From contig OY970208.1 in assembly GCA_963713865.1 (NCBI GenBank), positions 576,001 to 640,000 on the forward strand: 64,000 nt of DNA. Direction: 5' to 3'. Position numbers and translations under genes: made by a program. Below the pieces are notes generated by a model, which saw nothing but the letters and a program-made list of their open reading frames with translations, ran no database searches and had not been told where the DNA came from. How positions within the stretch are numbered: position 1 is the first letter of the stretch; the number at the start of each line of letters is the position of its first letter. Source of the stretch: an uncultured candidate division Zixibacteria bacterium. Lineage in GTDB: Bacteria; Zixibacteria; MSB-5A5; RBG-16-43-9. This document shows, piece after piece, positions 2,301-20,596 of this stretch.

Positions 2301-2301
2301 A

Positions 2302-4250: not shown

Positions 4251-6119
4251 ATGAAAGATCTAAAACCTGAAGATATCAATGTAATCGTCGCTACAGACTG
4301 CGGAAGCACCACTACCAAAGCGATCTTGATTGAGAAAAGAGGAAATGAATACCGCCTGATCGTGAGAGGTGAAGCCCCTACCACAGTTGAATTTCCTTTT
4401 GAGGATGTAACTATGGGAGTATTAAATGCCGTAGCTGAGGTGGAGGAGCTTTCTGGAAGAAAGATTCTGGATGAGAAAGGCAGGATTATTTCACCGGCTA
4501 AGGGAAACGTAGGTACCGACATCTATGTATCAACTTCAAGTGCTGGTGGCGGCTTGCAGATGATGGTCGCCGGAGTGGTAAGAAGTATGACCGCAGAAAG
4601 TGCTGAAAGAGCCGCCTTAGGAGCAGGTGCCATTGTGATGGATGTTATCGCCTCCAATGATAAAAGGCTTCCTCATCAGCAGATTCAGAGGATCAGACAT
4701 TTAAGACCGGATATGATTTTATTATCCGGAGGAATAGATGGGGGAACCACTACCCATGTGGTAGAATTAGCTGAGTTACTCTCTGCTGCAGACCCAAAAC
4801 CGAGATTAGGTATCGGTTACCAGCTACCGGTTATCTATGCCGGAAACATAAATGCGCGTGAGGCAATAAAAAATACCCTTTTAGATAAAGTGGATTTAAC
4901 CATAGTGGACAATATAAGACCAGTTTTAGAGAGGGAAAACCTCTTCCCTGCCCGTGAGAAAATCCACGACCTTTTTATGGAGCATGTGATGGCTCAGGCG
5001 CCCGGTTATAAAAAACTTATGACCTGGACCGATGCTCCGATTATGCCCACTCCAGGCGCAGTTGGTCTGATTATGAAAAAGATCGCAGATGAAGAAGGAA
5101 TTGAGGTGGTGGGTGTAGACATAGGTGGAGCAACTACTGATATCTTTTCCGTATTTCAAACCATCTTCAACCGGACCGTCAGCGCTAATCTGGGGATGAG
5201 CTATTCTGTATCCAATGTTTTTGCTGAAGCGGGATTGAGTAATGTGATGAGATGGGTCCCCTTTCATATGGATGAAAGAGATTTGAGAAACCGGGTCAAA
5301 AATAAGATGATTAGACCAACTACTATACCACAAACCTTAGAGGAGTTAATCTTTGAGCAGGCAATTGCTAAAGAGGCTTTAAGGCTTGCCTTTATCCAGC
5401 ATAAATCTTTTGCCACAGTTTTAAAAGGGATTCAACAGCAGAGAACCATAGCAGATGCCTTTGACCAGACCGCAGGTGGCCTGACACTGGTTAATATGAT
5501 GACCTTGAATATGCTCATTGGTTCAGGCGGGGTTTTATCCCATGCTCCGAGAAGAAATCAAGCCGCATTAATGTTAATCGATGGATTTTTACCAGAGGGT
5601 ACTACCAGATTAGCAGTTGACAGCATCTTTATGATGCCCCAGCTTGGAGTTTTATCCACTGTTCATACCAAAGCCGCAGTTGAAGTCTTCAATAAAGACT
5701 GCTTAATTCACTTAGGGACTTGCATCGCACCAGTTGGGGAACTTAAGGTCACTTACAGCTCTACGACCCGTAGGGAAGAAAAGGATATCTTAAAATATAA
5801 ATTTCAGATGCCGAATGGTGAAACCATTGAGGGTATTTTAAAATATGGTGAAATGAAAAAGTACCCCTTAGGCCTGGATGAAAAAGGAAACCCATTAAAA
5901 GCTAAGGCTACTTTGGAGCCGCTTAGAGGATTTGATGCTGGAGCAGGGAAAGGAACAAAAGTTGAAAAAGATATTTACGGTGGTGTAACTGGAATAATCT
6001 TAGATGGCAGAGGAAGACCTTTTGTTCTACCAACGGATGATAAAATCAGAGTTAAGAAACTAAAAGAGTGGATGATCGCATTAGGTATATATTCAAAGGA
6101 GATATTGGAAAGGCTGTAA
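4251..6119 (+). CDS. GlmL/'glutamate mutase L'-like ASKHA-fold ATPase with C-terminal extension
   Basis: Phosphate-1 motif ATDCGSTTTK, SSAGGGL, A..AALGAGA, LSGGIDGG, IMPTPGAV, phosphate-2 motif VDIGGATTD, IGSGGVLSH. Confidence 0.8.
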   Translation: MKDLKPEDINVIVATDCGSTTTKAILIEKRGNEYRLIVRGEAPTTVEFPFEDVTMGVLNAVAEVEELSGRKILDEKGRIISPAKGNVGTDIYVSTSSAGGGLQMMVAGVVRSMTAESAERAALGAGAIVMDVIASNDKRLPHQQIQRIRHLRPDMILLSGGIDGGTTTHVVELAELLSAADPKPRLGIGYQLPVIYAGNINAREAIKNTLLDKVDLTIVDNIRPVLERENLFPAREKIHDLFMEHVMAQAPGYKKLMTWTDAPIMPTPGAVGLIMKKIADEEGIEVVGVDIGGATTDIFSVFQTIFNRTVSANLGMSYSVSNVFAEAGLSNVMRWVPFHMDERDLRNRVKNKMIRPTTIPQTLEELIFEQAIAKEALRLAFIQHKSFATVLKGIQQQRTIADAFDQTAGGLTLVNMMTLNMLIGSGGVLSHAPRRNQAALMLIDGFLPEGTTRLAVDSIFMMPQLGVLSTVHTKAAVEVFNKDCLIHLGTCIAPVGELKVTYSSTTRREEKDILKYKFQMPNGETIEGILKYGEMKKYPLGLDEKGNPLKAKATLEPLRGFDAGAGKGTKVEKDIYGGVTGIILDGRGRPFVLPTDDKIRVKKLKEWMIALGIYSKEILERL

Positions 6120-6131
6120 ACTGAGGAATAC

Positions 6132-6214
6132 GGAGTATAAACCTTTAGGTTTATCTAAATGAATTTTCCTGTTTTGAATCTGATTGAGATGGTAAAGCTG
6201 AAGCTTTACACTCC
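6132..6214. repeat. GGAGT-type REP-like doublet (also 10298-10348, 22718-22772, partial at 26809)
   Basis: GGAGTRTAAACCTTYAGGTTTA ... TAAAGCTRAAGCTTTACACTCC recurring. Confidence 0.8.
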
Positions 6215-6261
6215 AGTTTTTTCCCAAAAAATAATTTTTCTGAAATCTTAAAGGAGTTTTT

Positions 6262-7389
6262 ATGGGACATGCATATACGCCGGGTTTAAAAGTAACTGAG
6301 AAGGTCTTAGTAACCAAGAAAAGGATTCTACCTTTGAAGGGCGAGGTCGTGGTAAAAGTTGGAGACAAGGTAAGCCCTGATACAGTGGTTGCCAGAACCA
6401 ATCTCCCTGGAAATGTGGAGCCGATAAATATAGCAAATATTTTGGGACTTCCTCCAGAGGATGTGCCTGAGCATATGTTGAGAAAAGAAGGGGAAAAAGT
6501 TAAAGAAAATGAAGTGATTGCCAAAAGCAAATCTTTCTTCGGGTTTTTCTCCTCAGAGTGCCGGTCCAAAGCTGAGGGCACAGTTGAAAGTGTTTCCTCC
6601 ATTACTGGACAGGTTTTGATTCGCGGAAACCCAATTCCAGTGGAGATAAAAGCCTATTTAGAGGGCGAGGTTGTCGAAGTCTTCCCAAAAGAGGGAGTTT
6701 CGGTTAGTACCTGGGGCTCTTTTATCCAGGGTATCTTCGGTATTGGTGGTGAGACCCATGGAGAGATAAAAATTGTAACCAAAGATAATACTGAAATCTT
6801 AACTGATACACTCATAGATAAAGAATGTGCTGGAAAGGTGATTGTGGGCGGAAGCCTGGTCACCAGCCTGGCAATAAAGAAAGCTGTTTCATCTGGAGTA
6901 AAGGGGATCGTGGTAGGGGGGTTTGATGATAAAGATCTAAGGGAATTTTTAGGGTATGATTTAGGAGTAGCCATAACCGGCTCAGAGGAGCTGGGCATAA
7001 CCCTGGTAGTAACCGAAGGTTTTGGGCAGATAAATATGGCAGAGAGAACCTTTAACTTGCTTAAATCCAAACAGGGAAAAAAGGCTTGTATAAACGGAGC
7101 CACCCAGATAAGAGCTGGGGTAATCAGACCTGAGGTGGTAATACCTTATACTGATGATATTCATAGAAAGATCGAAACTGAAGCCTTTGAAAATATCGGC
7201 CTGGACATCGGAAGCCCCATCCGGGTAATTCGACAACCCCATTTTGGCAGACTGGGTAAAGTTGTTAGTCTTCCTTCACCTTTGCAGAAACTTGAGTCCG
7301 AATCCTCTGCCCGGGTCTTGGAGGTTGAATTCGAGGATAAAACCAGAGCCATAATCCCCAGAGCTAATGTGGAGATGATAGAGGACTAG
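6262..7389 (+). CDS. Hypothetical cytoplasmic protein with biotinyl/lipoyl-like barrel-sandwich repeats, central alpha/beta domain and C-terminal KOW-like domain
   Basis: VKVGDKV and RKEGEKVKENEVIA..SKAEGTV motifs; GKVIVGG/KGIVVGG core; GSPIRVIRQPHFGRLGKV; no signal peptide. Confidence 0.7.
   Translation: MGHAYTPGLKVTEKVLVTKKRILPLKGEVVVKVGDKVSPDTVVARTNLPGNVEPINIANILGLPPEDVPEHMLRKEGEKVKENEVIAKSKSFFGFFSSECRSKAEGTVESVSSITGQVLIRGNPIPVEIKAYLEGEVVEVFPKEGVSVSTWGSFIQGIFGIGGETHGEIKIVTKDNTEILTDTLIDKECAGKVIVGGSLVTSLAIKKAVSSGVKGIVVGGFDDKDLREFLGYDLGVAITGSEELGITLVVTEGFGQINMAERTFNLLKSKQGKKACINGATQIRAGVIRPEVVIPYTDDIHRKIETEAFENIGLDIGSPIRVIRQPHFGRLGKVVSLPSPLQKLESESSARVLEVEFEDKTRAIIPRANVEMIED
7334..7389 (+). 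repeat. Direct repeat copy 1 (3' end of the 6262-7389 gene)
   Basis: 56 bp, 51 identical to 10148-10203. Confidence 0.95.
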
Positions 7390-7391
7390 AA

Positions 7392-7420
7392 GTAGGGACA
7401 GAACACTGTTCTGTCCCTAC
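7392..7420. repeat. GTAG-REP-like palindrome (also 49844-49872 and 52625-52649)
   Basis: GTAGGGACAGAACA-C-TGTTCTGTCCCTAC perfect inverted repeat. Confidence 0.85.
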
Positions 7421-7545
7421 AATATGTAATCTCGCCTTGTCCTCAAGTCCGAGAAATGGATCCACAGTAGAGGGATATTTGACCTCCCGTAGGCGGGGCT
7501 TCAAACCCCGCTAAATAAGTTTTCCAGAAAACTCTAAAAAATTCC

Positions 7546-7574
7546 TTGACTAAGTTAATCCTGTCTTATATAGT
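7546..7574 (+). promoter_or_regulatory. Sigma70-type promoter for the M4 peptidase
   Basis: TTGACT-N17-TATAGT, then GGAGG RBS before ATG 7618. Confidence 0.65.
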
Positions 7575-7617
7575 TAAAACTTAGAAAAAAGTAACCTTTT
7601 AACCGGAGGGGTGTCAA

Positions 7618-10134
7618 ATGAAAAAAGCAATTATTTCGGTGCTTGCTCTTTTCTTATTGAGCACACCACAGATTTTTGCCTCTGGCAAAGCCAGACCGAT
7701 TCAAAATGACCAGAAGGCAAAAGAGAAGATGGTCTTGTTAAAAGCCCGGGATGGGGCTTTAACAAAGTTAAAATCTCAAAGCAAATCGAAAATAGATGTT
7801 CGTTTTGACGAAAAGGGGATTCCTACATTTTTGAAGGGTGAGCTTTCTTTACCCGCTTCTGGGGATAAAAAAGATTTCGCTTTACAATTTCTGGATGGAT
7901 ACAAAGAACTGTTTCTCCTTAAAGATCCCAGAGCTGAACTAAAAGTAAAATCAGTACAAGAGGACAAAGCAGGGAACATACATATAAGATTTGATCAGGC
8001 TTATCAGGGTATTCCAGTTTGGGGTGCTCAGCTTTTAGTCCATTTGCATAAAGACGGGTACATAAAGTCTGTGAATGGTCGTTGGGAACCTACCCCGCAA
8101 ATTGATGTTATACCAACTTTATCCAAGGAGAATGCTTTAAAGATTGCCAAGGACGACTTAAAAAATTTAGACAGTCTCTTAGAGAAGCCTGAAGTTGAGC
8201 TTTTGATTTTCCCCTGGCAAAACGAAACCCATTTAGCCTGGCAGGTAACTTTAATTCCTGACTTAGCCCACGACTGGAAATACTTTGTGGATGCGAAAAC
8301 AGGAACTATTTTGTTAAAATATAATGACGTGAAAGACGATGGGTCTGTTACTGCCTTAGGAGTTATGCTAAACGGGAGCACGGTTAGTTTAAATGCTTAT
8401 ATAATAACGAACACAATTTATCTTATAGATGCTACTAAGTCGATGTATGTTCCGCCAATTGATAGCTTAAAAGGGATAATAGTCACACTTGACGACCATA
8501 ATGATACTACTGGGACTATTCCGCCATCATACATTATTGACCCAAATTCAGATACTGTCTTCAATGACAACAATAATCTTAAAGCTGGAGTCAGTGCTCA
8601 TTATTATGTTGGCAAGGTCTATGACTACTTTTATAACACCTTTGGCAGAAATAGTTGGGATGATAATGGAGGTAGATTAATAAATATAGTTCATTTTAGA
8701 GTCAATTACAATAATGCTTTTTGGAATGGCTCATGTATGGTTTTCGGAGACGGAGATAGCTTAGAATTCTTACCTTTCGCAGGAGCCTTAGATATAACTG
8801 CTCATGAATTAGGTCATGCTGTCACACAAGCAACGGCTGGTTTAATTTATTTGGGTGAATCGGGTGCTCTAAATGAGCACCTTTCAGATGTTTGGGGTGC
8901 AATGGTGGATAGAAAGAATTGGCTAATTGGTGAGGACATCACACTAATGAGCCCTGGATTCGGGAGAGACATGGCAGACCCACACCAAGGGCTTCCAACC
9001 GTCCCAAATCTTCCCTACGCTCAACCTGCCAATATGAGCGAATATGTTGATTATCCTTCTTATGAACCTTATGACAACGGTGGAGTTCATGTAAATATGG
9101 GAATTCCAAACAAGGCCTGTTATCTTTTAGCCACAGCTATAACCAGAGATACCACCGAGCAACTATACTACCAAGCATTGAATTATTATTTGTTTCCGAC
9201 CTCAAGATTTGTTGACCTGAGACGGTATTTGCTTCAAGCGGCTGAAGACCTTTACTCCCTTTCCTCAAATTATAACCATATCATAAGTTCAATCGGGATG
9301 GCTTTCGACTCTGTGGGTGTAATTGATTTTTATAATTATGGCTTGGATATCCTTGCTTACGATGATGGAAATGCATACTACTATTTATATTCGGATGTCA
9401 ATATCTCCCATGCGGTTAGATTTACACCACATGCCCCCTGTAGCTTATTGGCTATTATAGCCCAGTTTTACACAACCGGAAACAATTCATATCTTCACAT
9501 CTGGAAAGATTCTCTGAGGTATGGAATTCCTGGAACTGAGTTGCTCAATTTGAATATAAACCGAACTATTACATCTCCAGATTGGGGATTAATAGACTTG
9601 ACTGGCTTCAATTTACATTTTGATGAAGACTTTTATGTGGGATTCACTGCTACATCTCCTGATTCTTTTCTCTTATCTGACTCTTTGATGGATGTTAATC
9701 ACTATACAGTTTATTATGATAGTGGCTCAGGTTGGTTTTGTGTAAATCCGCCGGGCGATTGGACAACGGTTCTTGGAGATCCTTTAATTCAAGCTATTGT
9801 TAAATATGACTCTTTGCCAACAGATGTAGATGAAGATGCTGTTACTCTTTTGCCAAGCACCTTCAATTTATATCAGAACTTTCCAAATCCTTTTAATCCT
9901 GAGACTGAAATCAGATATAATTTGCCAAAAGGCACTAATATCCAATTAACTGTATATAATCTCTTGGGGCAAAGGATTAGAACCTTGGTGAACGAATACC
10001 AAAATGCTGGACACAAATCTATCCACTGGGATGGTAAAGACGAGAAAGGAATAGAAGTTGCCAGCGGGATATATTTCTATCTCCTTAAAGGAGGGGAATA
10101 TAAGCAAAGCAAAAAAATGATTCTGTTAAGATAG
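7618..10134 (+). CDS. Secreted M4 (thermolysin-family) metallopeptidase with FTP/PepSY propeptide and FlgD/T9SS-like C-terminal domain
   Basis: Signal peptide; NNAFWNG, HELGH zinc motif, GALNE..SD, DNGGVH.N; C-terminal QNFPNPFNP..YNLLGQ..WDG..SGIYFY. Confidence 0.93.
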   Translation: MKKAIISVLALFLLSTPQIFASGKARPIQNDQKAKEKMVLLKARDGALTKLKSQSKSKIDVRFDEKGIPTFLKGELSLPASGDKKDFALQFLDGYKELFLLKDPRAELKVKSVQEDKAGNIHIRFDQAYQGIPVWGAQLLVHLHKDGYIKSVNGRWEPTPQIDVIPTLSKENALKIAKDDLKNLDSLLEKPEVELLIFPWQNETHLAWQVTLIPDLAHDWKYFVDAKTGTILLKYNDVKDDGSVTALGVMLNGSTVSLNAYIITNTIYLIDATKSMYVPPIDSLKGIIVTLDDHNDTTGTIPPSYIIDPNSDTVFNDNNNLKAGVSAHYYVGKVYDYFYNTFGRNSWDDNGGRLINIVHFRVNYNNAFWNGSCMVFGDGDSLEFLPFAGALDITAHELGHAVTQATAGLIYLGESGALNEHLSDVWGAMVDRKNWLIGEDITLMSPGFGRDMADPHQGLPTVPNLPYAQPANMSEYVDYPSYEPYDNGGVHVNMGIPNKACYLLATAITRDTTEQLYYQALNYYLFPTSRFVDLRRYLLQAAEDLYSLSSNYNHIISSIGMAFDSVGVIDFYNYGLDILAYDDGNAYYYLYSDVNISHAVRFTPHAPCSLLAIIAQFYTTGNNSYLHIWKDSLRYGIPGTELLNLNINRTITSPDWGLIDLTGFNLHFDEDFYVGFTATSPDSFLLSDSLMDVNHYTVYYDSGSGWFCVNPPGDWTTVLGDPLIQAIVKYDSLPTDVDEDAVTLLPSTFNLYQNFPNPFNPETEIRYNLPKGTNIQLTVYNLLGQRIRTLVNEYQNAGHKSIHWDGKDEKGIEVASGIYFYLLKGGEYKQSKKMILLR

Positions 10135-10147
10135 ATCCCCCTCCAAA

Positions 10148-10203
10148 AGGACAAAACCAGAGCCATAATCCCCAGAGCAAATGTGGAAATGATCGAGGAC
10201 TAA
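10148..10203 (+). repeat. Direct repeat copy 2 (orphan gene 3' end encoding DKTRAIIPRANVEMIED*)
   Basis: Matches 7334-7389; 10423-10467 also matches 7509-7553 (43/45). Confidence 0.95.
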
Positions 10204-10459
10204 CCGGATTTCTGGATTATAAAGTCTTCAAGGTTTGAGATTTCAACTTTATCAAACTGCAAACCCACGTTGAGGGCAACGTGGGTATACTTTTTGGGGA
10301 GTGTTAACCTTCAGGTTTACCATAAATAAAACTAAAGTTTTACACTCCAGTATAGAAATCGGTAATCCCGCCTTGCCCCCAAGGTGGGATATTTGACCTG
10401 CCGCCAGTGGAGTTCCAAGCTACGCTAAATAAGTTTTCCAGAAATATCTAAAAAATTCC

Positions 10460-10487
10460 TTGACTAAAAAAATTAATCCGATAAATT
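10460..10487 (+). promoter_or_regulatory. Candidate promoter for the membrane cassette array
   Basis: TTGACT-N16-TAAATT; the -35 side is duplicated at 7546. Confidence 0.45.
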
Positions 10488-10656
10488 AGAAGGCGAGATG
10501 GAGAACCCTTAAGAGTCTGGAGGTTCTTTCTGACAAAAAGGATTGCTCAAAACAGAAGATCTACTTTGAAGATTTGGGCAATTGATATTTAATTTTAGCC
10601 GCTAATCCATTTTAGAAGATTAGTGGTTTTTGTTTTTAATATCTTAAGGATACTCG

Positions 10657-11862
10657 GTGAGAATAGTTAGAGCAATGAGCAAGAGAAATAAGAGGATAAA
10701 CTGGAATTTAGTTTCACTCCTTTTTATTTTTAGCCTATCTATTTTAAGTCCCGCTTTTGCCCAAGAAGATACCCTTCCCCCCTCTTCACCCACAGATGTT
10801 ATGGCTAAAGATACTCCGAATGATGCGGGAGGGAGTATCACCATAACCTGGAATAAATCTATGGATGATGGTGCTGGAAAAAATAACGTGACCGGATATT
10901 TGATTTATCGTTCTGAAGAGCGGGAGGGAGAATATAAAGAGATTGGACAGGTCGCCAAAGGAAGCAAAGAGTTCACTGACGGCAACACCAAAGATAAAAT
11001 TAACTATTATTACAAGATAAAGGTTATAAATAAATCTGGTCTTTTTTCTTTTTCTGAACCCAGTCTAAGCGCTTTATCTAAAGCTCAATGGTTTTCTTCA
11101 GGGAGAAAAAATACTTTGATTGCTGCACTGATCCTGGGAGGGTTAATACTCTACTTTATAAGTCAGGCCAGAGCAGGAAAAGAGCTGTTCATTAGAAAAA
11201 TTGCCGGCTTGGACGCGGTAGACGATGCGGTTGGTAGGGCCACGGAGATGGGTAAGAAGATCCTGTATATTCCCGGCACCCAGGATATGGATAATGTCCA
11301 GACCATCGCTGGAGTTACTATCCTAAGCCGGGTTGCCAAAATAACTGCAGAATATGAAACACCACTGGAGGTGCCGGTTTCCCGTTCCTTGGTAATGATC
11401 ACCTGTCGGGAAGTGGTCAAAGAAGCATATGCTTCTGCAGGCCGTCCGGATGCCTTTAAAGAGGATATGGTCCATTACCTGACCGATGATCAATTCGGCT
11501 ATGCGGCTGGAATCGATGGCCTGATCTTGAGAGAGAAACCAGCTACCATCTTTTATCAAGGTGCTTTTTATGCAGAATCTTTAATTATGGCTGAAACCGG
11601 AAACTCCATTGGAGCGATTCAAATTGCCGGAACCGCTATGCCAGCTCAAATCCCCTTCTTTTTTGCCTCCTGTGATTACACTTTAATCGGCGAAGAGCTT
11701 TTCGCGGCATCAGCTTATCTTTCCAAAGAGCCAAAACTTCTGGGTAGCCTGAAAGGGCAGGATATTGGCAAAGCCATTATTTTGCTGATGCTGACTGCAG
11801 GGATTCTTTTCATAACCACTGGATTGTGGAGAGGGTTTGATAGTTTGTTTATAGTTCAATAG
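10657..11862 (+). CDS. Cassette 1 subunit A: signal peptide + FN3-like domain + DUF6754-like membrane-anchored domain
   Basis: PTDV..DTPND.G..ITW...Y.IYRS..YYYKI; IAGLDAVDDAVGRATEMG; LIGEELFAASAYL. Confidence 0.8.
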   Translation: MRIVRAMSKRNKRINWNLVSLLFIFSLSILSPAFAQEDTLPPSSPTDVMAKDTPNDAGGSITITWNKSMDDGAGKNNVTGYLIYRSEEREGEYKEIGQVAKGSKEFTDGNTKDKINYYYKIKVINKSGLFSFSEPSLSALSKAQWFSSGRKNTLIAALILGGLILYFISQARAGKELFIRKIAGLDAVDDAVGRATEMGKKILYIPGTQDMDNVQTIAGVTILSRVAKITAEYETPLEVPVSRSLVMITCREVVKEAYASAGRPDAFKEDMVHYLTDDQFGYAAGIDGLILREKPATIFYQGAFYAESLIMAETGNSIGAIQIAGTAMPAQIPFFFASCDYTLIGEELFAASAYLSKEPKLLGSLKGQDIGKAIILLMLTAGILFITTGLWRGFDSLFIVQ

Positions 11863-11870
11863 GAGAAAAG

Positions 11871-12524
11871 ATGCGAAGAGAAATACCCCTGATTTTGACT
11901 GCAACCGTGGGAATAGTTTATATAATCTCATTTTTCATACCCCATAGACCATTTGGCTCGGTGGAAACACTTTTCTCCGACTGGATTTTAATCATAGCCG
12001 CATTTGCCATCTGGTTAGGGGCATTAAATCTCCTGAGAGTATCGGCTGATAAAATTTACAGGAAAAAAAAGGACTGGTTTTATGCTCTGGTCACCATTTT
12101 AAGCTTTTTTTTGATTGCCATAATTGGGTTTTTCTTTTCCCGGGGCTCTCATTTTCAAGATGTCGGAACCTCTTTCGACTATCTTTATAGAAACGTATAT
12201 AACCCCCTTTCCGCCACTATGTTTGCCATCCTGGCATTTTTTGTCGCCTCAGCTTCTTACCGGGCATTTAGAGCCAGAAGCTGGGAGGCAACCCTGCTTT
12301 TGCTCGCCGCATTTTTTGTAATGTTAGGAAGGGTGCCTATCGGTGATATGATTTCCGGGTTTCTACCGGAAAATATTCGGCTCTCCGCGGTTGCTACTTT
12401 CATTATGAACATTCCTCAGTCTGCTGGACAGAGAGCTATTATGATAGGAATTGGTTTAGGTATTATCTCCACGGCTTTACGTTTAATCCTGGGGATTGAG
12501 AGAACTTATTTAGGTGGGGATTAG
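11871..12524 (+). CDS. Cassette 1 subunit B: polytopic membrane protein
   Basis: About 6 TM; MRREIP start, TMFAILAFFVASASYRAFR, LGIERTYLG end; paralogous to 15273 and 18450. Confidence 0.8.
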   Translation: MRREIPLILTATVGIVYIISFFIPHRPFGSVETLFSDWILIIAAFAIWLGALNLLRVSADKIYRKKKDWFYALVTILSFFLIAIIGFFFSRGSHFQDVGTSFDYLYRNVYNPLSATMFAILAFFVASASYRAFRARSWEATLLLLAAFFVMLGRVPIGDMISGFLPENIRLSAVATFIMNIPQSAGQRAIMIGIGLGIISTALRLILGIERTYLGGD

Positions 12525-12540
12525 AAAGAGGAGTAAAAGG

Positions 12541-13383: not shown

Positions 13384-13395
13384 CTGGAGGAAAGT

Positions 13396-14052
13396 ATGGA
13401 AACTTTTGGACTTTGGATAGCTGCTCTTCTAACCTTGGGAATAATGTCTTTCCTATACAAGGATAACCCTATATATAAGCTCTGCGAATCTATCTTCATT
13501 GGAATCTCTGCCGGGTACTGGTTTGTCAGCCTTTTCTGGCAGAGTATGTACCCCCGGCTTTACCTGAATATCCGGGGTGCCGTATCTACCCTCTTACATG
13601 AGGGAAGGATCTCTGATGATCGGTGGCTTTACCTGGTGGCTGGGATCCTGGGAGTGATGATGCTTTTGCGCCTTATCCCGAAAATCGGCTGGATTTCCCG
13701 CTGGCCCCTTTCCTTTATAGTGGGTTCAACCGCAGGCCTTTATTTTATCACTTACCTGCAGAGCAATATAATGAACCAGATTCGTAGTACCATTATCCCG
13801 ATTTATGTGCCTGGAAACCTGGGAATCTCCATCTCAAATCTAATAGTTTTTGTGGGAGTTTTCTGCGGCCTGGTTTATTTTTTCTTTTCTCGGGAACATA
13901 AAGGGGCTTTTGGCGGAGCAGCCAAGGTGGGGATCTGGTTTCTAATGATAACCTTTGGCGCTTCCTTCGGGTTCACAGTTATGTCCCGAATGTCCCTGTT
14001 AATTGGTAGAATCGACTTTCTCTTCGGAACCTGGTTAGGCTTGATAAAATGA
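13396..14052 (+). CDS. Cassette 1 subunit D: polytopic membrane protein
   Basis: SFLYKDNP.YK..E...G.SAGY, YFFFSREHKG, FGASFG.TVMSR; paralogous to 16793 and 19918. Confidence 0.8.
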   Translation: METFGLWIAALLTLGIMSFLYKDNPIYKLCESIFIGISAGYWFVSLFWQSMYPRLYLNIRGAVSTLLHEGRISDDRWLYLVAGILGVMMLLRLIPKIGWISRWPLSFIVGSTAGLYFITYLQSNIMNQIRSTIIPIYVPGNLGISISNLIVFVGVFCGLVYFFFSREHKGAFGGAAKVGIWFLMITFGASFGFTVMSRMSLLIGRIDFLFGTWLGLIK

Positions 14053-14085
14053 CCCCAAAATTTTTAACTTGACTTTTAGGAGTAA

Positions 14086-15267
14086 ATGAAAATAACAAAA
14101 TATATTCCATTTTTAATTTTACTGATACTTCTCTTCTACGACCTGTCTTCCCCTCAAGAGGCTTTACCTCCTCTTCCTCCAACCGATGTAAGGGTTAAGG
14201 ATGCTCCTAACGATAACGGCACGGCATTAATAATCACCTGGAAACATTCACCGGATAGCAACAGGATCTTAGCTTACGAAATTTTAAGGTCTGATTCTCC
14301 AGAAGGTGAGTTCGTGGTTGTAGGAAAGGCTACTCCCAGTGATACTCTGTATAAAGATAAAGGCGATAAGGAAAAGGAAAGCCCTAACTATTTCCCCAGT
14401 CATAAAAATTACTATTATAAAGTAAGAGCAAGAATAGATAATCTTTATTCTGACTCAAAGGTCTCTTTACCAGCTTATGCTTATCAACAGTGGTACCATA
14501 CCGGTAAAACACCGGTCCTGGTAGCAGTTATAATCTTCACCATCTTAACCATTGTTTTTATAAACATAGCTAAGAAAGGGAAGGAACTTTATGTCCGGCC
14601 CCTGGCTGGAATTATGGCGGTAGATGAGGCAATTGGCAGAGCAACAGAGATGGGAAGACCTATACTTTTTATCTTAGGTTCAGGCACTGCGGCTGATATT
14701 GCTACCATTGCCGGTTTTACTATCTTAAGCCGGATAGCCAAGAAGACCGCGGAATATAAGACAAAGATTATAGTTCCCTGCAATGACCCGATTATTATGG
14801 CGGTTGCCCAAGAAACAGTCAAATCGGCTTATATGGATGCAGGCAGACCAGATGCTTATCAGGAAGAGAATATATTCTTTCTCACCTCTATGCAATTTGC
14901 CTATGCAGCAGGGGTAAATGGGATTATGTTAAGGGAGAAAACCGCCACCAATTTCTATATGGGAATGTTTTATGCGGAGGCATTGATTTTTGCTGAGACC
15001 GGTACGATTGCCGGCTCGATTCAGATATCGGGGACGGACCAGATGTCTCAGCTTCCGTTCTTTGTAGCAGCTACGGACTATACCCTAATCGGTGAGGAAC
15101 TTTACGCAGCAAGTGCCTATCTTGGTAGGGAGCCATTACTTTTGGGAGCACTCAAAGCCCAGGACTGGGCCAAAGTGATACTCTTGGTTTGCTTGATATT
15201 GGGAATTGTCTTTACCAGTTTTCATTTAGATTTCTTCGCTAACCTTTTCAAATATACTTTGGAATAA
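14086..15267 (+). CDS. Cassette 2 subunit A: FN3-like + DUF6754-like
   Basis: PTDV..DAPNDNG..ITW; IGRATEMG; LIGEELYAASAYL. Confidence 0.8.
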   Translation: MKITKYIPFLILLILLFYDLSSPQEALPPLPPTDVRVKDAPNDNGTALIITWKHSPDSNRILAYEILRSDSPEGEFVVVGKATPSDTLYKDKGDKEKESPNYFPSHKNYYYKVRARIDNLYSDSKVSLPAYAYQQWYHTGKTPVLVAVIIFTILTIVFINIAKKGKELYVRPLAGIMAVDEAIGRATEMGRPILFILGSGTAADIATIAGFTILSRIAKKTAEYKTKIIVPCNDPIIMAVAQETVKSAYMDAGRPDAYQEENIFFLTSMQFAYAAGVNGIMLREKTATNFYMGMFYAEALIFAETGTIAGSIQISGTDQMSQLPFFVAATDYTLIGEELYAASAYLGREPLLLGALKAQDWAKVILLVCLILGIVFTSFHLDFFANLFKYTLE

Positions 15268-15272
15268 AGAAT

Positions 15273-15923
15273 ATGAGAAGAGAATTGCCTATCTTAGTGG
15301 TTTTGATATCCGGGCTTTTTATGGCGGTGCAGTATTTTGTTCCCAGTGGTCCAGCAGAGTTTGTGCAGGAATATGCTATGGACTGGGTAATAATTATTGG
15401 AGCATTTGCTATGGGTTTGGGATTGTGGAGCTTGACCAAAGTTAATTGGATAAAACTTCAGAGAAGAACGCCCGGCTGGGGATATAATTTAGTAACCATT
15501 TTAGGAATGGTTTTTATGCTGGTGGTGGGACTGATTTGGGATCCAAAATTGGGGCTTTTCCCAGGAGCAAAATCGCAAGTAAGTGGAACCTGGTTTATGA
15601 ACTTTTTTGTTCATGTTTATACTCCTATCCAAGCGGTGATGTTTTCGCTGTTGGCTTTTTATATCGCCTCTGCCGCCTATCGTGCCTTTAGGGCAAGGAC
15701 TATTTTGGCTACTATCCTTTTGGTCACGGCCATAGTTATTATGTTAAGACTGATTCCGTTAGGGTCTATCTCAGGCATAAATCAGTGGTTGGCTAACTGG
15801 ATTCTGATAGTACCGAATATGGCTGCAAAAAGGGCAATCTGGATGGGAGTTGGTTTGGGTATGGTGGCTATGGCCTTGAAAATAGTCTTGGGAATTGAAC
15901 GTTCTTATATGGGCAGAGACTAA
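15273..15923 (+). CDS. Cassette 2 subunit B
   Basis: MRRELP..MFSLLAFYIASAAYRAFR..LGIERSYMG. Confidence 0.8.
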   Translation: MRRELPILVVLISGLFMAVQYFVPSGPAEFVQEYAMDWVIIIGAFAMGLGLWSLTKVNWIKLQRRTPGWGYNLVTILGMVFMLVVGLIWDPKLGLFPGAKSQVSGTWFMNFFVHVYTPIQAVMFSLLAFYIASAAYRAFRARTILATILLVTAIVIMLRLIPLGSISGINQWLANWILIVPNMAAKRAIWMGVGLGMVAMALKIVLGIERSYMGRD

Positions 15924-15924
15924 T

Positions 15925-16782
15925 ATGGATTTTTATGACAGACTAATGAATTTGGATCGCAGGTGGGTTTATCTGTTTGTGGCGATTGCGGTGATTTTGC
16001 CGATCCTTTTGCAGGACTTTGGAGTTCCGATAATCATACCCCCATATATCACCCCAGAGACAAAAAGCGTTTACAGTTTTGTAGAAAAGCTGCAAGCTGG
16101 TGATGTACTTTTTTTGGCAATAGATTATGATCCAATGGCTATGGCGGAGTTGCATCCTGTAGCCAGAGCTATATTGAAGCAATGTTTCAAAAAAGATGTT
16201 AAAGTAATTATTTCCGCTTTAAGCCAGAATGGTCCGGGAATGGCAGAACAGCTCATATCCCAAACTGGCCGAGAATACAATAAAGTTAATGGGGTGGATT
16301 ATGTTTACTTGGGTTATAAGCCCTTTCCCGCCATTGTGATTATGGGTATGAGTCAGAACTTTAAACTCTTTTTCCCCAAAGATTATTACGGCAACCCGCT
16401 TGATTCTTTGCCAATGATGACAAAGATAAGAAGTATCAAAGAAACCAAAGGAGTAATTGATGTTGCAGCAGGGAGCGTGGCTGACTATTGGATAAACGAA
16501 GGAGCTGGAAGATATAATTATCCTTTGGCTTTGTGTGTAACCGGGGTTATGGCAGCGGATTATTATCCTTTTTTGAATTCCGGCCAGATATTTGGTCTTA
16601 TAGGAGGAATGAAAGGCGCGGCCGAATATGAGTATTTGGCAGAAAAAGGTGGGTACATGAAAAAAGAAGAGCTTAAGGCTACGCAAGGAATGCCCATACA
16701 GACTTTTGCCCATATTGTAGTCATACTCTTCATTATCATTGGGAATGTTGGGTATTTTATGTCCAAAAGAAAGAAATCTTAA
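15925..16782 (+). CDS. Cassette 2 subunit C
   Basis: DRRWVY, DYDP..AELHP, YPFLNSGQIFGLIGGMKGAAEYE. Confidence 0.8.
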   Translation: MDFYDRLMNLDRRWVYLFVAIAVILPILLQDFGVPIIIPPYITPETKSVYSFVEKLQAGDVLFLAIDYDPMAMAELHPVARAILKQCFKKDVKVIISALSQNGPGMAEQLISQTGREYNKVNGVDYVYLGYKPFPAIVIMGMSQNFKLFFPKDYYGNPLDSLPMMTKIRSIKETKGVIDVAAGSVADYWINEGAGRYNYPLALCVTGVMAADYYPFLNSGQIFGLIGGMKGAAEYEYLAEKGGYMKKEELKATQGMPIQTFAHIVVILFIIIGNVGYFMSKRKKS

Positions 16783-16792
16783 GGAGACAAAG

Positions 16793-17452
16793 GTGACTTT
16801 GGTTAACTTTATCTGGCTTACCGTTGAAGCTATGCTGGTCCTGTTTACCTTCTCTTTTTTATACAAAGATAATCCGTTTTATAAATTCGCCGAGCATCTG
16901 GTAGTGGGAGTCTCAGCCGGGTATTTTGCAGTCCTCCTTTATTATAGCTCTTTTGTACCAAAGGTCATAGATACCATATTCAAACAGGGCTGGTGGTATT
17001 ACTCTATTCCGGCGATCTTGGGGGTTTTGATGTGGACACGCTTTTCCAAGAAATTCTCATGGATATCACGTTTTTCTATTGCCTTCTACATGGGCATAGG
17101 AACTGGTGCAGCTATACCTTTGACATTGCAAAATTACGTGTTGATACACTTAAGGAAGACCATACAACCGGTCAATTTCACCAGCTTAAATGGCATCTGG
17201 CAGTTTTTGGTGGTGTTATTTGTTTTTTCCACTTTGACCTATTTCTTCTTTTCCCGGGAACACAAAGGTCTATTTGGTGCCTCAGCTAAATTAGGTATCT
17301 GGGTATTGATGATAGCCTTTGGAGCAGGATTTGGCCTTACCGTTATGGGCAGGGTCGCCCTTCTGGCTGAAAGGGTCATATTTTTAAGAGACTACTTCGT
17401 CGGGATGAAATATTATCTCTATCTGTTACTTAAATATGGATTACCATTATGA
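16793..17452 (+). CDS. Cassette 2 subunit D
   Basis: GTG start after AAGGAG; SFLYKDNPFYKFAEH, YFFFSREHKG. Confidence 0.8.
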   Translation: MTLVNFIWLTVEAMLVLFTFSFLYKDNPFYKFAEHLVVGVSAGYFAVLLYYSSFVPKVIDTIFKQGWWYYSIPAILGVLMWTRFSKKFSWISRFSIAFYMGIGTGAAIPLTLQNYVLIHLRKTIQPVNFTSLNGIWQFLVVLFVFSTLTYFFFSREHKGLFGASAKLGIWVLMIAFGAGFGLTVMGRVALLAERVIFLRDYFVGMKYYLYLLLKYGLPL

Positions 17453-18339
17453 AAAAACTCCTCTGGTTGAAAAACTTTTTCTTTTTTCTATTTATTTATT
17501 TTACCCTTTCCCCCTTATCTTCAGCTTCAGAAACTGAGACCTCTGCTGAAATTATCTCCGCTACCCAGTGGTTCAATCCTCAAAGGATAAATGTCTTCAT
17601 CATTTTAATTGTTTTTTTTGCCTTCGTGCTTTATTTCATCCAGAAGGCAAAGAAGGGAGGAAGCCTGTTTGTGCGCAGGATTGCAGGACTGGATGCAATT
17701 GAAGATGCAGTGGGAAGAGCAACTGAAATGGGAAAGCCAATCCTTTATATCTCCGGGATTGAGGATATGGACAATCTCCAGACCGTTGCCAGTATGATTA
17801 TTTTGGGTAATGTGGCTGAGATGGTTGCCGCTTATGATGTTCCTCTCATTGTTCCGGTTTGTCTCCCCTTTGTAGTGACAGTGGCTGAGGAATCTGTTAA
17901 ACAGGGTTATGCGAAAGCGGGACGGCCGGAGGCTTATAATCGCAATAATGTAAGGTTTCTGACCAGTGAGCAGTTTGCCTATGCGGCTGGGGTTAACGGG
18001 ATAATGCTTCGGGAGAAACCTGCAGCCAATTTTATGTTTGGTTCATTCTATGCGGAATCTCTGCTTATGGCTGAAACTGGTCTTTCAACTGGAGCTATTC
18101 AGGTAGCTGGGACTGCTAATATTCACCAGCTCCCCTTCTTTGTGGTAGCGTGTGACTTCACCCTTATCGGAGAAGAGCTTTTCGCTGCCTCTGCCTATCT
18201 TTCACGGGAACCCAAGCTTTTAGGCAGTTTAAAAGCCTCGGATTTAGCCAAGTTCTTGATAATGGTAATGTTAATATCTGGAGTTTTATTGGAAACTTTC
18301 GGAATTACAAAATTTACCTCCTGGTTTTTTGTGCAGTAG
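17449..18339 (+). CDS. Cassette 3 subunit A: DUF6754-like, lacking the FN3 domain
   Basis: Signal peptide, short linker, IAGLDAIEDAVGRATEMG, LIGEELFAASAYL. Confidence 0.8.
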   Translation: MKKLLWLKNFFFFLFIYFTLSPLSSASETETSAEIISATQWFNPQRINVFIILIVFFAFVLYFIQKAKKGGSLFVRRIAGLDAIEDAVGRATEMGKPILYISGIEDMDNLQTVASMIILGNVAEMVAAYDVPLIVPVCLPFVVTVAEESVKQGYAKAGRPEAYNRNNVRFLTSEQFAYAAGVNGIMLREKPAANFMFGSFYAESLLMAETGLSTGAIQVAGTANIHQLPFFVVACDFTLIGEELFAASAYLSREPKLLGSLKASDLAKFLIMVMLISGVLLETFGITKFTSWFFVQ

Positions 18340-18449
18340 AGAAGTGCAATCCGCCAAAAGCGGATTGTTGCTAATTTTAAATATGCAAGAGCAAGCTCTT
18401 GCACTCCGACAAGACGTGAGAAGTAAGAAGTGAAAAGATAAAAAAACCT

Positions 18450-19064
18450 ATGCGTAGAGAAGTTCCCATAATCATCTGTTTCTTAGCTGGAGCTTTCTTC
18501 ATTGGAAACTACTTCAGCCCCAAACTTCAGCCAGTAGCTCAGGTAGTTAATCAATGGGCAATAATTTGCATTGCCTTTGCCTATGTCCTGGGAGTTGCCA
18601 ATATCTTCAGGGTAAACTCTCAGGTAATAGCCAGGAAGGGTAAAGACTGGGTTTATAAAATCGTTTTAGTGGCAGGGTTAATCCTGATGATCTGTTTCGG
18701 AATCCTGGGTGAAGTCAGGGAAGGCACAGCTTTTAACTGGGTCTTTATGAACGCCATCTATCCTATGCAGGCGACAATGTTTGCCCTTTTAGCCTTTTAT
18801 ATCGCCTCAGCCGCCTTCAGGGCTTTCAGGATAAGAAGCTGGGAAGCCGCTCTCTTAGGAATTACCGCAGTCCTGGTGATGATCGGCAGGGTGCCGTTGG
18901 GTGAATTGGTTTGGAAAGGTTTCCCACTCTTTACTGAATGGATTATGAATGTCCCTCAGCTTGCAGCTAAAAGAGCCATAATGATTGGAGCGGCTTTAGG
19001 CGCCATCTCAACCGGAATCAAAGTTCTTATCGGACTGGAGAAAACCTATATGGGCGGAGAATAA
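18450..19064 (+). CDS. Cassette 3 subunit B
   Basis: MRREVP..TMFALLAFYIASAAFRAFR..IGLEKTYMG. Confidence 0.8.
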   Translation: MRREVPIIICFLAGAFFIGNYFSPKLQPVAQVVNQWAIICIAFAYVLGVANIFRVNSQVIARKGKDWVYKIVLVAGLILMICFGILGEVREGTAFNWVFMNAIYPMQATMFALLAFYIASAAFRAFRIRSWEAALLGITAVLVMIGRVPLGELVWKGFPLFTEWIMNVPQLAAKRAIMIGAALGAISTGIKVLIGLEKTYMGGE

Positions 19065-19072
19065 TTGTATCT

Positions 19073-19912
19073 ATGAAAAAATTCTTTGAAAAACTTGAGA
19101 AATTAGACCGAAGGATAATCTTTATCTTCGTGGCTATTGCCCTGATCTTACCCCTTTTTATCCCCTTGAATATCAAGTTCTCTGTTACCCAGCCGGTGCA
19201 AAGCTTTTACGATACTATAGAATCTTTACCTCCTGGCTCAAAAATCCTTTTGAGCGCCGATTATGACCCCGGCTCTATGCCGGAGCTCTGGCCAATGCAT
19301 CTGGCAGCAGTGAGACAACTCTGCAAAAGAGGTATAAAAATAATCTCCATCCAGCTCTGGGCAACTGGCTCCCCCTTAGTTGAAAGAGCTTTTAATGAAA
19401 TAGCCGTAGGTGAGTTTCATAAAAAGTATGGTGAGGATTTTGTGAATTTAGGTTTTAAAGAGGGAAGAGAGGTGGTAATGGTCTCCATGGGGAATTCAAT
19501 CCCCCAGACTTTCCCCACAGATTATCACGGTAATAAAACCGAAGATTTACCCATAATGCAAGGTGTAAAAAATTTCAGTGACTTAGGTATGATCGTTAAT
19601 ATCTCCGGGGGTCTTCCTGGAACCAAGGAATGGATTTTGCAGGTGGTTTCCCGTTTTCATATAAAGCTTGCCTCCGGCTGTACCGCAGTCAGTGCCCCGG
19701 AATTCTACCCCTATTTACAATCCGGGCAGTTAGTCGGACTTTTAGGCGGGATGAAAGGTGCGGCAGAATATGAACAACTAGTAGGGGTTACAGGATTGGG
19801 CAAAAGGGGTATGGACTCACAGTCTGTAGCTCATTTAGTGATCTTTTTATTCATCCTGATCGGGAACATTGCTTATTTTTCAACCAGAGGAATGAAAAAG
19901 GAGAAAAGCTAA
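19073..19912 (+). CDS. Cassette 3 subunit C
   Basis: DRRIIF, DYDP..PELWP, YPYLQSGQLVGLLGGMKGAAEYE. Confidence 0.8.
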   Translation: MKKFFEKLEKLDRRIIFIFVAIALILPLFIPLNIKFSVTQPVQSFYDTIESLPPGSKILLSADYDPGSMPELWPMHLAAVRQLCKRGIKIISIQLWATGSPLVERAFNEIAVGEFHKKYGEDFVNLGFKEGREVVMVSMGNSIPQTFPTDYHGNKTEDLPIMQGVKNFSDLGMIVNISGGLPGTKEWILQVVSRFHIKLASGCTAVSAPEFYPYLQSGQLVGLLGGMKGAAEYEQLVGVTGLGKRGMDSQSVAHLVIFLFILIGNIAYFSTRGMKKEKS

Positions 19913-19917
19913 TAAAT

Positions 19918-20596
19918 ATGCCTTCATCTGAATTCATAGGAACCTGGCTTGCCGCAGGACTAACCATATTTTGTTTCAGTTTCTTATATAAGGATAACCC
20001 TTTTTATAAGTTTGCGGAACATCTCTATGTGGGAATCTCTGCTGGCTATTGGACCTCTATGGAATATCACAACGTATTCTTACCTAACCTTTGGGATCCC
20101 CTGATGAGACTGGACTTGAATCTTCTCTTCTCTTTTCCTGAGCTTGGATTTGCAATGATGTGGCAATCTATGATCCTTATAGTCCCATTCATTTTTGGAA
20201 TCTTACTTTTTACCCGCCTTACTAAGAATTTTGGCTGGCTTTCCCGCTGGTCAATGGCTTTAATCATCGGCATATTTGCCGGAATCGCTATTATAGGATA
20301 CAGCACCGGTGATTTAATAACCCAGATCTATGCCAACCTGCTTCCATTATGGACCGGCAACTGGCTTTCCTCTTTGAATAATATCATTTTAATCATAGGG
20401 GTTATTACTTCTCTAATCTACTTTTTCTTCTCCAAGGAGCACAAGGGGACTTTAGGTGGTGCCGCCAAGATCGGGGTTCTGGTTTCTGATGATCTCCTTT
20501 GGCGCCTCCTTCGGGTATACGGTTATGTCCCGTATGTCCCTTTTAATCGGCAGGATCTATTTTATTTTTGGAGAGTGGCTGAGATTGATAAAATAA
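19918..20596 (+). CDS. Cassette 3 subunit D, with an apparent +1 frameshift at ~20477 (probable sequence error)
   Basis: Removing one T gives KIGVWFLMISFGASFGYTVMSRMSLLIGRIYFIFGEWLRLIK*, nearly identical to the D1 C-terminus. Confidence 0.8.

Follow-up and report, generated by a model that had tools for sequence, protein, structure and literature searches.

What kind of machine is encoded by twelve consecutive membrane-protein genes of an uncultured Zixibacteria bacterium, and does the single ATPase gene upstream of them power it? The question arises from a 64,000-nucleotide stretch of contig OY970208.1 (the window, by which we mean the whole of the DNA analysed), in which three four-gene cassettes, each of the order A-B-C-D, follow single genes for a GlmL-like ATPase and for a soluble protein of 375 residues. 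The original prediction, made from the letters alone, saw here a new type of ATP-coupled membrane machine. We show that A-B-C-D is a fixed four-gene membrane unit, that the ATPase and the 375-residue protein are likewise a fixed unit, and that the two units adjoin each other frequently, in a set order and often with tight spacing, across distant phyla. The functional coupling that this adjacency suggests, between an uncharacterised inner-membrane machine and an ASKHA-fold ATPase, we rate at close to, and still short of, an even chance. The parts of the system are listed below; the names X375, u154 and u137 are labels coined in this analysis.

1836-2300, + strand: u154, small membrane protein, first gene of the conserved set
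2302-2715, + strand: u137, small protein, second gene of the conserved set
4251-6119, + strand: GlmL/MutL-fold (ASKHA) ATPase of 622 residues (PF13941 match)
6262-7389, + strand: X375, soluble protein of 375 residues (AlphaFold2 model, homologue alignment)
Cassette 1, + strand: A1 10657-11862, B1 11871-12524, C1 12514-13383, D1 13396-14052 (open reading frame calls, translations)
Cassette 2, + strand: A2 14086-15267, B2 15273-15923, C2 15895-16782, D2 16739-17452 (open reading frame calls, paralogue alignments)
Cassette 3, + strand: A3 17449-18339, B3 18450-19064, C3 19073-19912, D3 19918-20596 (open reading frame calls; A3 without FN3 domain, D3 frameshifted)

These genes belong to one co-directional run on the + strand (1836-20596). 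The open reading frames (ORFs) at 10657-20596 are, as predicted, three paralogous A-B-C-D sets: relative to copy 1, the identities of copies 2 and 3 are respectively 48% and 55% (A), 42% and 45% (B), 39% and 54% (C), and 45% and 39% (D), and similarity at this level (39-55%), which we read as paralogy, is far above chance. All of the motifs quoted for the subunits were found (GRATEMG and IGEEL.AASAYL in A; MRRE.P, RAFR and GIER.Y.G in B; DYDP and GGMKGA.E.E in C; SFLYKDNP and FFFS.EHKG in D), and little or no variation is seen at most motif positions when 44-47 homologues from other genomes are aligned. The placement of the GlmL-like ATPase and the barrel-sandwich/KOW protein (X375) as single genes upstream of the cassettes on the same strand held as well. 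The last gene of the array is frameshifted: the frame of D3 is open from 19918 to 20679, similarity is lost after '...GGAAKIGV', and the conserved C-terminus ends at 20596 in the +1 frame. Compared with the orthologues of loci L065 and L008, a G/T run near 20478-20482 is one base longer, which alters the last ~38 residues. Since conservation persists beyond that point in the shifted frame, this would be either a recent lesion or a sequencing error.

To what extent is the cassette a unit outside this genome? A scan with an alignment of A, covering one genome per species, matched at least 599 stretches, of which at least 583 encode a relative. The locus analyses reported here cover the best 80 of these at least 583 relatives (loci designated by L numbers), in which ORFs were called and searched with profiles of the window paralogues and with the upstream proteins. 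The 80 loci represent at least 12 named phyla, with sources in Zixibacteria, Ignavibacteriota, WOR-3, Stahlbacteria, Coatesbacteria, Eisenbacteria, Fermentibacterota and Aegiribacteria, and in Cloacimonadota, Edwardsbacteria, Gemmatimonadota, Poribacteria, Planctomycetota (including a Gimesia metagenome-assembled genome, or MAG, L070), Acidobacteriota and Myxococcota; the nearest relatives of the window are Zixibacteria MAGs. For 104 of the 107 + strand A genes that have 2600 bp or more of downstream sequence, B, C and D come next; 25 further A genes, cut by contig ends, lie outside this test. The three exceptions are an overlap in ORF calling (L053), a split A gene (L067) and a stand-alone A fused to Peptidase_S49 (L007). 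A single protein combines C and D in three of the 150 best C representatives. Because of this gene order and these fusions, A-D is one unit. Its C family alone comprises 5,444 clusters at 50% identity (E <= 1e-3). The subunits within each unit presumably bind one another.

Loci carry one to three cassettes, with one locus having four A genes owing to a split A, and a single A gene is found in 39 of the 80, some of them truncated. A FastTree phylogeny of the three window copies and 127 A proteins from the loci (130 in all, excluding ORFs shorter than 250 residues or running off the locus) groups the sequences of Zixibacteria and Ignavibacteria by their position in the array. One clade of 32 rows consists of first-position genes (support 93) and another, of 26 rows, of mostly last-position genes (support 100). 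A2 groups with A genes that stand second or third in the arrays of other Zixibacteria and Ignavibacteria, and A3 lies in a clade of nine rows (support 99) with an inner clade of seven rows (support 100) made up of last-position A genes. Because A genes cluster by array position across both lineages, the cassette duplications are old and the paralogues have been retained.

What, then, are the four subunits? A1, A2 and A3 are full-length members of DUF6754 (PF20539), with E-values of 3.2e-122, 4.1e-113 and 1.2e-117 and scores of 407, 377 and 392 bits against a gathering cut-off of 27. The N-termini of A1 and A2 combine a signal-peptide-like segment with an FN3-like domain, a call that comes from weak PDB profile matches alone (best E = 0.0029); in the paralogue alignment, the FN3 domain is missing from A3. 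The AlphaFold2 model of A3 (predicted local distance difference test, pLDDT, 83.5; predicted template modelling score, pTM, 0.76) has a membrane helix at residues 44-68, an alpha/beta domain of six strands at 79-252 and another long helix at 255-283. B is polytopic with about six hydrophobic segments, as is D with five to six, and C has a hydrophobic segment at each end with ~210 residues between. On the basis of the hydrophobic segments, the signal peptide and the distribution of lysine and arginine, the DUF6754 domain would be cytoplasmic and the C domain periplasmic.

Family searches gave B, C and D no Pfam or NCBIfam match at E <= 0.01, the single sub-threshold match among them being to TMD0_ABC (17 bits against a 27-bit cut-off). 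Sequence and profile searches of A, B, C and D against the PDB found nothing significant besides the weak FN3 match on the N-terminus of A. The look-alikes of C in the ESM Atlas are all unnamed clusters (30/30). Profile-profile comparison detected no relation between A and C (probability 5.1%) or between B and D (0.3%) that would betray a hidden internal symmetry. That A-D lack known transport signatures had been predicted, and indeed no ABC, ECF, TRAP, PTS, RND or Sec/Tat family was matched in Pfam, NCBIfam or the PDB profiles; neither did Pfam, NCBIfam and PDB searches subunit by subunit give a confident match to a characterised complex. Two arrangements involving the A family or its arrays may be recorded here. 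At 9863-12250 of L007 a lone DUF6754 protein carries a C-terminal Peptidase_S49 (SppA/NfeD-type) domain and has no B, C or D after it, and at 9869-11223 of L023 an NfeD and SPFH gene pair lies between cassettes 1 and 2.

The more variable parts of the subunits hint at what they bind. Long A homologues (120 listed of 1,087) have varied N-terminal domains, including FN3, PQQ-type beta-propellers and RHS repeats. The B proteins of L025 and L031 have FG-GAP repeats inserted between hydrophobic segments three and four, a loop that we place in the periplasm, and B of L064 has a 380-residue insert at the same point; some C proteins have a CARDB or HEAT-repeat insert. The periplasmic face of the conserved core would thus accept modules of the protein- or glycan-binding kind, which points to macromolecular partners of A-D rather than small solutes.

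Is the upstream ATPase an ordinary GlmL? Residues 12-484 match the whole of the Pfam MutL profile (PF13941, positions 1-450 of 450) at 1.4e-129 and 433 bits. The protein nevertheless misses the cut-offs of the GlmL-type NCBIfam models tested (NF040745, NF040744 and TIGR01319), scoring 230.5 against 475 bits for GlmL, 224.8 against 600 for Or-4 and 172.2 against 204.05 for the glmL family. It has a subfamily-specific, beta-rich C-terminal extension of ~140 residues (~485-622), which the locus homologues share, the 21 full-length ones measuring 597-678 residues. As predicted, no glutamate mutase S or E gene is present among the 56 window ORFs scanned, which also include no OraS/OraE or KamD/E gene, and no mutase family was found among the locus neighbours scanned. 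The missed cut-offs, the lack of mutase genes nearby and the extra C-terminal domain support the view that the window ATPase is not a true GlmL. In 23 GlmL-like sequences, which are 62-93% identical across phyla, three stretches are invariant (23/23): D16-C-G-S-T-T-T-K23 and D290-I-G-G-A-T-T-D297, which we take to be the two ASKHA phosphate motifs, and S425-G-G, presumably the adenosine motif. Sequence and profile searches of the PDB with the GlmL-like protein found nothing significant. Elsewhere in the window, a B12-binding radical SAM protein is encoded at 37942-39108 (+ strand).

The original label of a barrel-sandwich/KOW protein for X375 is a reasonable one, given its model and fold matches. 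The AlphaFold2 model (pLDDT 84.5, pTM 0.74) comprises an N-terminal beta-rich, barrel-sandwich-hybrid-like domain (~9-171), an alpha/beta domain (~192-295) and a C-terminal KOW-like domain (~319-374). Compared by fold with the PDB, the model has 0 matches at E <= 1e-3, and the likeness is at the level of domains only: above that threshold, the middle domain matches RraA, LdcA/MccF and the swivel domain of rifampin phosphotransferase, all of which we take to be of the 'swivelling beta/beta/alpha' type, and the C-terminal domain matches the KOW domains of Spt5/NusG. A weaker full-length match is to the membrane-fusion protein BesA (probability 0.13-0.23). X375 has no Pfam or NCBIfam family, its RnfC_N and Biotin_lipoyl matches falling below the cut-offs, and sequence and profile searches of the PDB found nothing significant. 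Its ESM Atlas matches are its own family of hypothetical proteins, 10-20% of them with a barrel-sandwich Pfam label. The family has at least 8,000 clusters at 90% identity, and homologues at 95-99% identity exist, two of them labelled Zixibacteria by their source. Identities among 26 sequences range from 48 to 91%, with no invariant lysine, histidine or cysteine. We read the conservation of the ATPase (62-93%) and of X375 across phyla as a sign of strong functional constraint. Three roles were considered for X375 and set aside. A biotinyl or lipoyl carrier is at odds with the Biotin_lipoyl score (14.8 against 22.1 bits) and with the lack of an invariant lysine in the 26 sequences, and a phosphohistidine relay is argued against by the lack of an invariant histidine in the same set. 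As for a NusG/Spt5 factor, only the C-terminal ~60 residues match KOW, and no NusG family match was found.

Gene fusions tie X375 to the ATPase. A GlmL-like part followed by X375 makes up a single protein in 119 of the 120 long X375 homologues (those over 657 residues) listed of 148 found. Some 50 of these 119 fusions are closely related, with 46-55% identity over 99-100% of X375 and a length of ~990-1005 residues, and their named sources are Planctomycetota or Neomarinimicrobiota; P0241, for example, has the full ATPase including the extension, a linker and then the whole of X375. The remaining fusions are distant (26-35% identity), with an X375-like part that lacks KOW and, in some, HTH_3 or Zn_ribbon_2 domains. 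The named sources of this distant family (P0292-P0360, e.g. P0302) are WOR-3, Cloacimonetes, Delongbacteria and Aegiribacteria, and it was found in none of the 80 A-D loci. Since the two are fused in 119 of the 120 listed long homologues, the ATPase and X375 act as one unit.

How closely does this pair keep company with the cassettes? At least 4 kb upstream of the first A gene is available in 56 loci, of which 24 have a GlmL-like gene, 24 have X375 and 23 have both. The co-occurrence of A-D homologues with the ATPase, on which the predicted machine hinges, is therefore partial: 25 of the 56 loci have one or both genes beside A-D, whereas 31 have neither, and since these 31 lack both in the flank the ATPase is not an obligate neighbour of A-D. 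By source, one or both are present in Planctomycetota (3/3), Acidobacteriota (2/2), Fermentibacterota (2/2), Aegiribacteria (1/1), Coatesbacteria (1/1), Zixibacteria (10/15), Ignavibacteriota (3/4) and loci without a phylum label (3/16), and in none of the loci from WOR-3 (0/5), Poribacteria (0/2), Eisenbacteria, Myxococcota, Gemmatimonadota, Cloacimonadota and Edwardsbacteria (0/1 each).

Wherever the genes are co-directional the order is (u154)-(u137)-GlmL-X375-A. The gap from X375 to A is -10 to 24 nt in ten loci (L029, L037, L046, L051, L058, L064, L070, L073, L076 and, by position, L053) and 71-471 nt elsewhere, including the closest relatives of the window. The pair is divergent from the cassettes in five Zixibacteria and Ignavibacteria loci, and a gene of ~250 codons lies between the ATPase and X375 in seven loci. 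The two small upstream genes also belong to the conserved set. In 18 loci, among them those of Planctomycetota and Acidobacteriota, u137 immediately precedes the GlmL-like gene; it has one moderately hydrophobic segment and a charged tail, no Pfam family in the window copy or in any of the 17 homologues scanned, no NCBIfam family, and no PDB relative by sequence. A single-sequence search placed u154 ahead of the GlmL-like gene in 13 loci; its one long hydrophobic stretch (37-82) has room for two helices. The C-terminal domain of u154 resembles the bacterial pleckstrin homology (PH) domain, with bPH_6 matches in two of 12 homologues: that of L076, at 25.4 bits, clears the 22-bit cut-off, and that of L073 reaches 21.7 bits. 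The window copy itself matches nothing in Pfam.

The following features of the same region lie outside the system or at its edge:

2723-4021, + strand: HNH-like ORF (2723-3586) and lipoprotein-like ORF (3608-4021), probable insertion outside the system
7618-10134, + strand: M4 (thermolysin-type) peptidase with a type IX secretion system (T9SS) sorting domain (Pfam and NCBIfam matches)
20794-20806, + strand: terminator-like hairpin and T run, 3' of the array and ahead of a convergent gene

The M4 peptidase gene, which had gone unmentioned in the original prediction, separates X375 from A1 in the window. It is flanked by direct duplications, 7334-7388 against 10148-10202 (55 nt, 93% identical) and 7472-7553 against 10386-10467 (82 nt, 84% identical); the duplicated stretch is the 3' end of the X375 gene plus part of the following intergenic region, including a promoter-like TTGACT, and looks like an insertion footprint. 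In the closest relatives, L008 and L065, A follows X375 directly with no peptidase gene between them. On account of these duplications and this absence, the peptidase gene is best read as a lineage-specific insertion and not as a core part. Similarly, u137 and the ATPase gene are 1535 nt apart in the window against 201 nt in L008. The GC content of 2001-4000 is 0.337, the HNH-like ORF has an HNH_5 match at 22.1 bits, below the cut-off, and neither it nor the lipoprotein-like ORF was found in any of the 80 loci; the low-GC stretch 2716-4250 is probably a mobile insertion. Of the single terminator that was said to close the array, the hairpin at 20794-20806 exists, but the region has no excess of such sites (16 against 20.9 expected from shuffles), and two more lie at 10263-10286 and at 18346-18368, the latter inside the 110-nt spacing between A3 and B3.

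Convergent on the array end is a gene (20826-22559, - strand) for a 577-residue protein with invasin D3 and Big_1 Ig-like domains, and a similar gene lies 3' of the array in L065 (18154-19206, - strand). Farther along the window are a MacAB/TolC-type efflux set with an HlyD-family adaptor (39995-45484, + strand) and two dockerin-domain proteins (46504-48604, - strand). PADLOC gave 0 anti-phage defence matches for 10 proteins of the region.

Do other neighbours reveal what the machine handles? The remaining 641 locus ORFs were clustered, with family names assigned on individual cluster members, and in a second scan 131 of the 257 ORFs beside or inside the systems were covered, short ORFs being excluded; 26 ORFs picked by clustering overlap partly with this set. 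The commonest extra neighbour is an ExbB-type gene (11 of the 80 loci), and ExbD-, TonB- and TonB-dependent-receptor-type genes are found in seven loci each. Peptidases recur: a C25 peptidase gene lies directly upstream of A in L055 and L080, an M28 peptidase forms a five-locus cluster, and M4 peptidase genes are present in L007, L019 and L027 as well as in the window. PmbA/TldD, an aspartyl protease and a rhomboid protease are neighbours once or twice each. An oligopeptide ABC ATPase is encoded in L078 and a family-5 solute-binding protein in L043. In L012 (9364-15707, with the same run in L014, L018 and L020, all of WOR-3 or Stahlbacteria), A-D are followed by a DUF4388 protein and four small genes without a family, and the tightly packed run continues with ExbB, two ExbD and TonB; L014 and L020 also have a TonB-dependent-receptor-type gene in it. 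An MglA/MglB-like identity was considered for the small genes that separate A-D from ExbB in WOR-3 and set aside, as no family was found in the 15 ORFs scanned. Because most neighbours are unrelated housekeeping genes, the theme of nutrient and peptide uptake is a weak one, a lead and not a pattern. The peptide importer or translocase that was originally proposed is hence suggested weakly, by neighbour genes only, and the window's own peptidase gene is an insertion.

Put together, these observations could be accommodated by a two-module system of the cell envelope. The first module would sit at the cytoplasmic face of the inner membrane and consist of u154 (PH-like), u137, the ASKHA ATPase with its extra C-terminal domain and the three-domain adaptor X375. 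The second would be a four-subunit inner-membrane complex, A-B-C-D, present in the window in three anciently diverged versions. In this complex A would have a variable periplasmic head (FN3 in the window), a membrane helix, a cytoplasmic Rossmann-like DUF6754 domain and a second helix, B and D would be polytopic, and C would hold a periplasmic alpha/beta domain between two membrane helices. ATP hydrolysis by the GlmL-like/X375 unit might be passed to the cytoplasmic domain of A, which would drive a conformational cycle of B-C-D that moves or processes a periplasmic substrate. This substrate, probably macromolecular or derived from a polymer, would be captured by the binding modules in the periplasmic parts of A, B and C. 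The leading guess, albeit a weak one, is that breakdown products of proteins or peptides are taken up after delivery by TonB-dependent receptors. We infer the coupling of the two modules, the membrane topology and the transfer of ATP energy to the membrane complex. In its specific form, a new class of translocase or trans-envelope motor powered by the ASKHA ATPase through a KOW-bearing adaptor, and not by a P-loop ATPase or an ion gradient, with one to three interchangeable membrane modules and heads for macromolecular cargo, the model is rather improbable, and we regard it as less likely than coupling as such. The predicted sharing of one energising module among interchangeable membrane modules fits the finding of one pair with one to three cassettes, but a single hetero-oligomer fits it equally well.

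Several findings weigh against coupling and against the transport model built on it. The 31 loci without a GlmL-like gene or X375 within 10 kb include 5/5 from WOR-3 and 2/2 from Poribacteria, and A-D may in those cases do without the pair or rely on a copy that is not linked to them. X375 and A are 177-471 nt apart in the window and its closest relatives, with promoter-like sequence in between, and because of this spacing the two modules may be transcribed separately in this lineage. The fold search of the PDB with A3 returned 0 matches at E <= 1e-3 and generic Rossmann-like proteins only (best TM-score 0.47), and no likeness to a known transporter, channel or ATPase-docking domain was seen in any of the A-D domains. 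The flanking genes across loci are mostly unrelated housekeeping genes, and the peptidase gene of the window is an insertion. The one other protein among the 120 listed long X375 homologues, P0279, in which X375 is followed by A, has no second member and keeps the signal peptide of A internally, and may reflect a lost stop codon or a sequencing error. A complex prediction for X375 and the cytoplasmic domain of A1 (172-368) returned 'no answer' with a score of 0.00, which counts neither way. The tie of the ATPase and X375 to A-D is thus, for now, one of gene order.

The main rival to coupling is that these are two separate systems which are often neighbours, with A-D self-sufficient (e.g. ion-driven or passive) and the u154-u137-GlmL-X375 set forming a membrane-associated ATPase system of its own or serving A-D as an assembly or repair chaperone or a regulator, and not as their motor. 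We think this unlikely on balance, while taking it seriously. The loci that lack the pair in the flank (31/56) speak for it, as do the candidate membrane anchors that the first module has of its own (u154 and u137), the promoter-like site ahead of A1 in the window and the distant GlmL-X375-like fusion family of WOR-3 and Cloacimonetes, which is beside A-D in 0 of the 80 loci; moreover, the characterised relatives of GlmL are regarded as chaperone-like reactivases and not as motors. It has more difficulty with an order and orientation that stay the same in at least six phyla, with the X375 and A frames that overlap or nearly touch in 10 loci, and with the strong conservation of both modules. 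Another reading, to which we give a low probability, takes the cassettes as one hetero-oligomer, an envelope-spanning scaffold or biogenesis machine whose heads touch the cell wall, proteins of the outer membrane or polymers at the surface. The inserts are indeed of the protein- or glycan-binding type (FN3, BamB-like PQQ propeller, FG-GAP, CARDB, RHS) and not of the small-molecule type, position-specific paralogue clades are kept across phyla, and ExbB/ExbD/TonB neighbours in several loci, the DUF6754-S49 peptidase fusion in L007 and the NfeD-SPFH pair inside the L023 array would suit such a role; yet genomes with a single cassette are common (39/80 loci have one A gene, some loci being truncated), and no cell-wall or lipid enzyme consistently adjoins the array. 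That the ATPase is after all an ordinary GlmL, reactivating a B12-dependent mutase in an incidental neighbourhood of membrane genes, is practically excluded: its strong PF13941 match and the B12-binding radical SAM gene at 37942-39108 could be cited in favour, but it scores below three curated NCBIfam cut-offs, has no mutase gene near it among the 56 window ORFs or the locus neighbours scanned, and has an extra C-terminal domain and a fusion to X375.

The gene set is large and phylogenetically wide, extending over candidate phyla of the FCB group, Planctomycetota, Acidobacteriota, Poribacteria, Gemmatimonadota and others. Most of the lineages that carry it are uncultured, and what is said of their envelope and uptake biology is inferred from homology only. 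Were the coupling that we favour true, so that the ATPase drives the membrane complex, the principle of energy coupling would be new to membrane transport; to our knowledge, no membrane transport system described so far is energised by an ASKHA ATPase. Were the ATPase not to drive A-D, two widespread systems of no known role would still be left. In both cases, the locus offers a concrete eight-gene target for structural and genetic work.

How does this gene set compare with what has been described? Our literature searches found no paper on DUF6754, PF20539, PF13941 or TIGR01319, and nowhere a mention of B, C and D as partners of DUF6754 or of the link to the ATPase pair; for GlmL, the matches listed were unrelated word matches only, and GlmL-type phrases gave nothing related. 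Glutamate mutase is only listed among non-polymerising actin-fold enzymes in two passages of one paper (PMC5597319). The homologues are annotated at source as 'hypothetical protein', 'DUF6754 domain-containing protein', 'glutamate mutase L' or, wrongly, 'NusG'. The system seems to fit no known kind of machine, and no function has been described for this gene set, which spans many phyla. DUF6754 itself, of which A1-A3 are full members, is entered in Pfam only as a domain of unknown function.

The closest known counterparts of the ATPase are GlmL, Or-4, EutA and DdrA, which are ASKHA-fold reactivases of B12 enzymes. The likeness lies in its PF13941 membership and its invariant putative ASKHA motifs; it differs from GlmL-type reactivases in its ~140 extra residues, in never being found beside mutase genes in the window or the loci, in its fused or adjoining X375 and in its proximity to membrane cassettes. 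DdrA has a domain of the swivelling beta/beta/alpha type built in, and it is not among the 47 fold matches listed for X375 (ranks 1-50). PilM, GspL and FtsA are actin-fold proteins that dock on inner-membrane platforms, and PilM with PilNOP, GspL and FtsA offer an analogy in that each is an ASKHA-fold cytoplasmic protein encoded with bitopic or polytopic inner-membrane partners that have periplasmic domains. A-D, however, showed no likeness in sequence or fold to PilN/O/P, GspM/F or divisome proteins, and X375 has no counterpart there. Group II ECF transporters and ABC importers, finally, are modular primary transporters with a shared energising module. They are set apart by their components, as the 12 cassette genes and the two upstream genes include no P-loop ATPase, EcfT/S, ABC permease or solute-binding family and the ATPase is of the ASKHA type. 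The coupling that we tentatively prefer would nonetheless make A-D and the ATPase pair analogous to them in organisation, with one cytoplasmic ATPase unit, one to three membrane sets and variable binding modules that face the periplasm.

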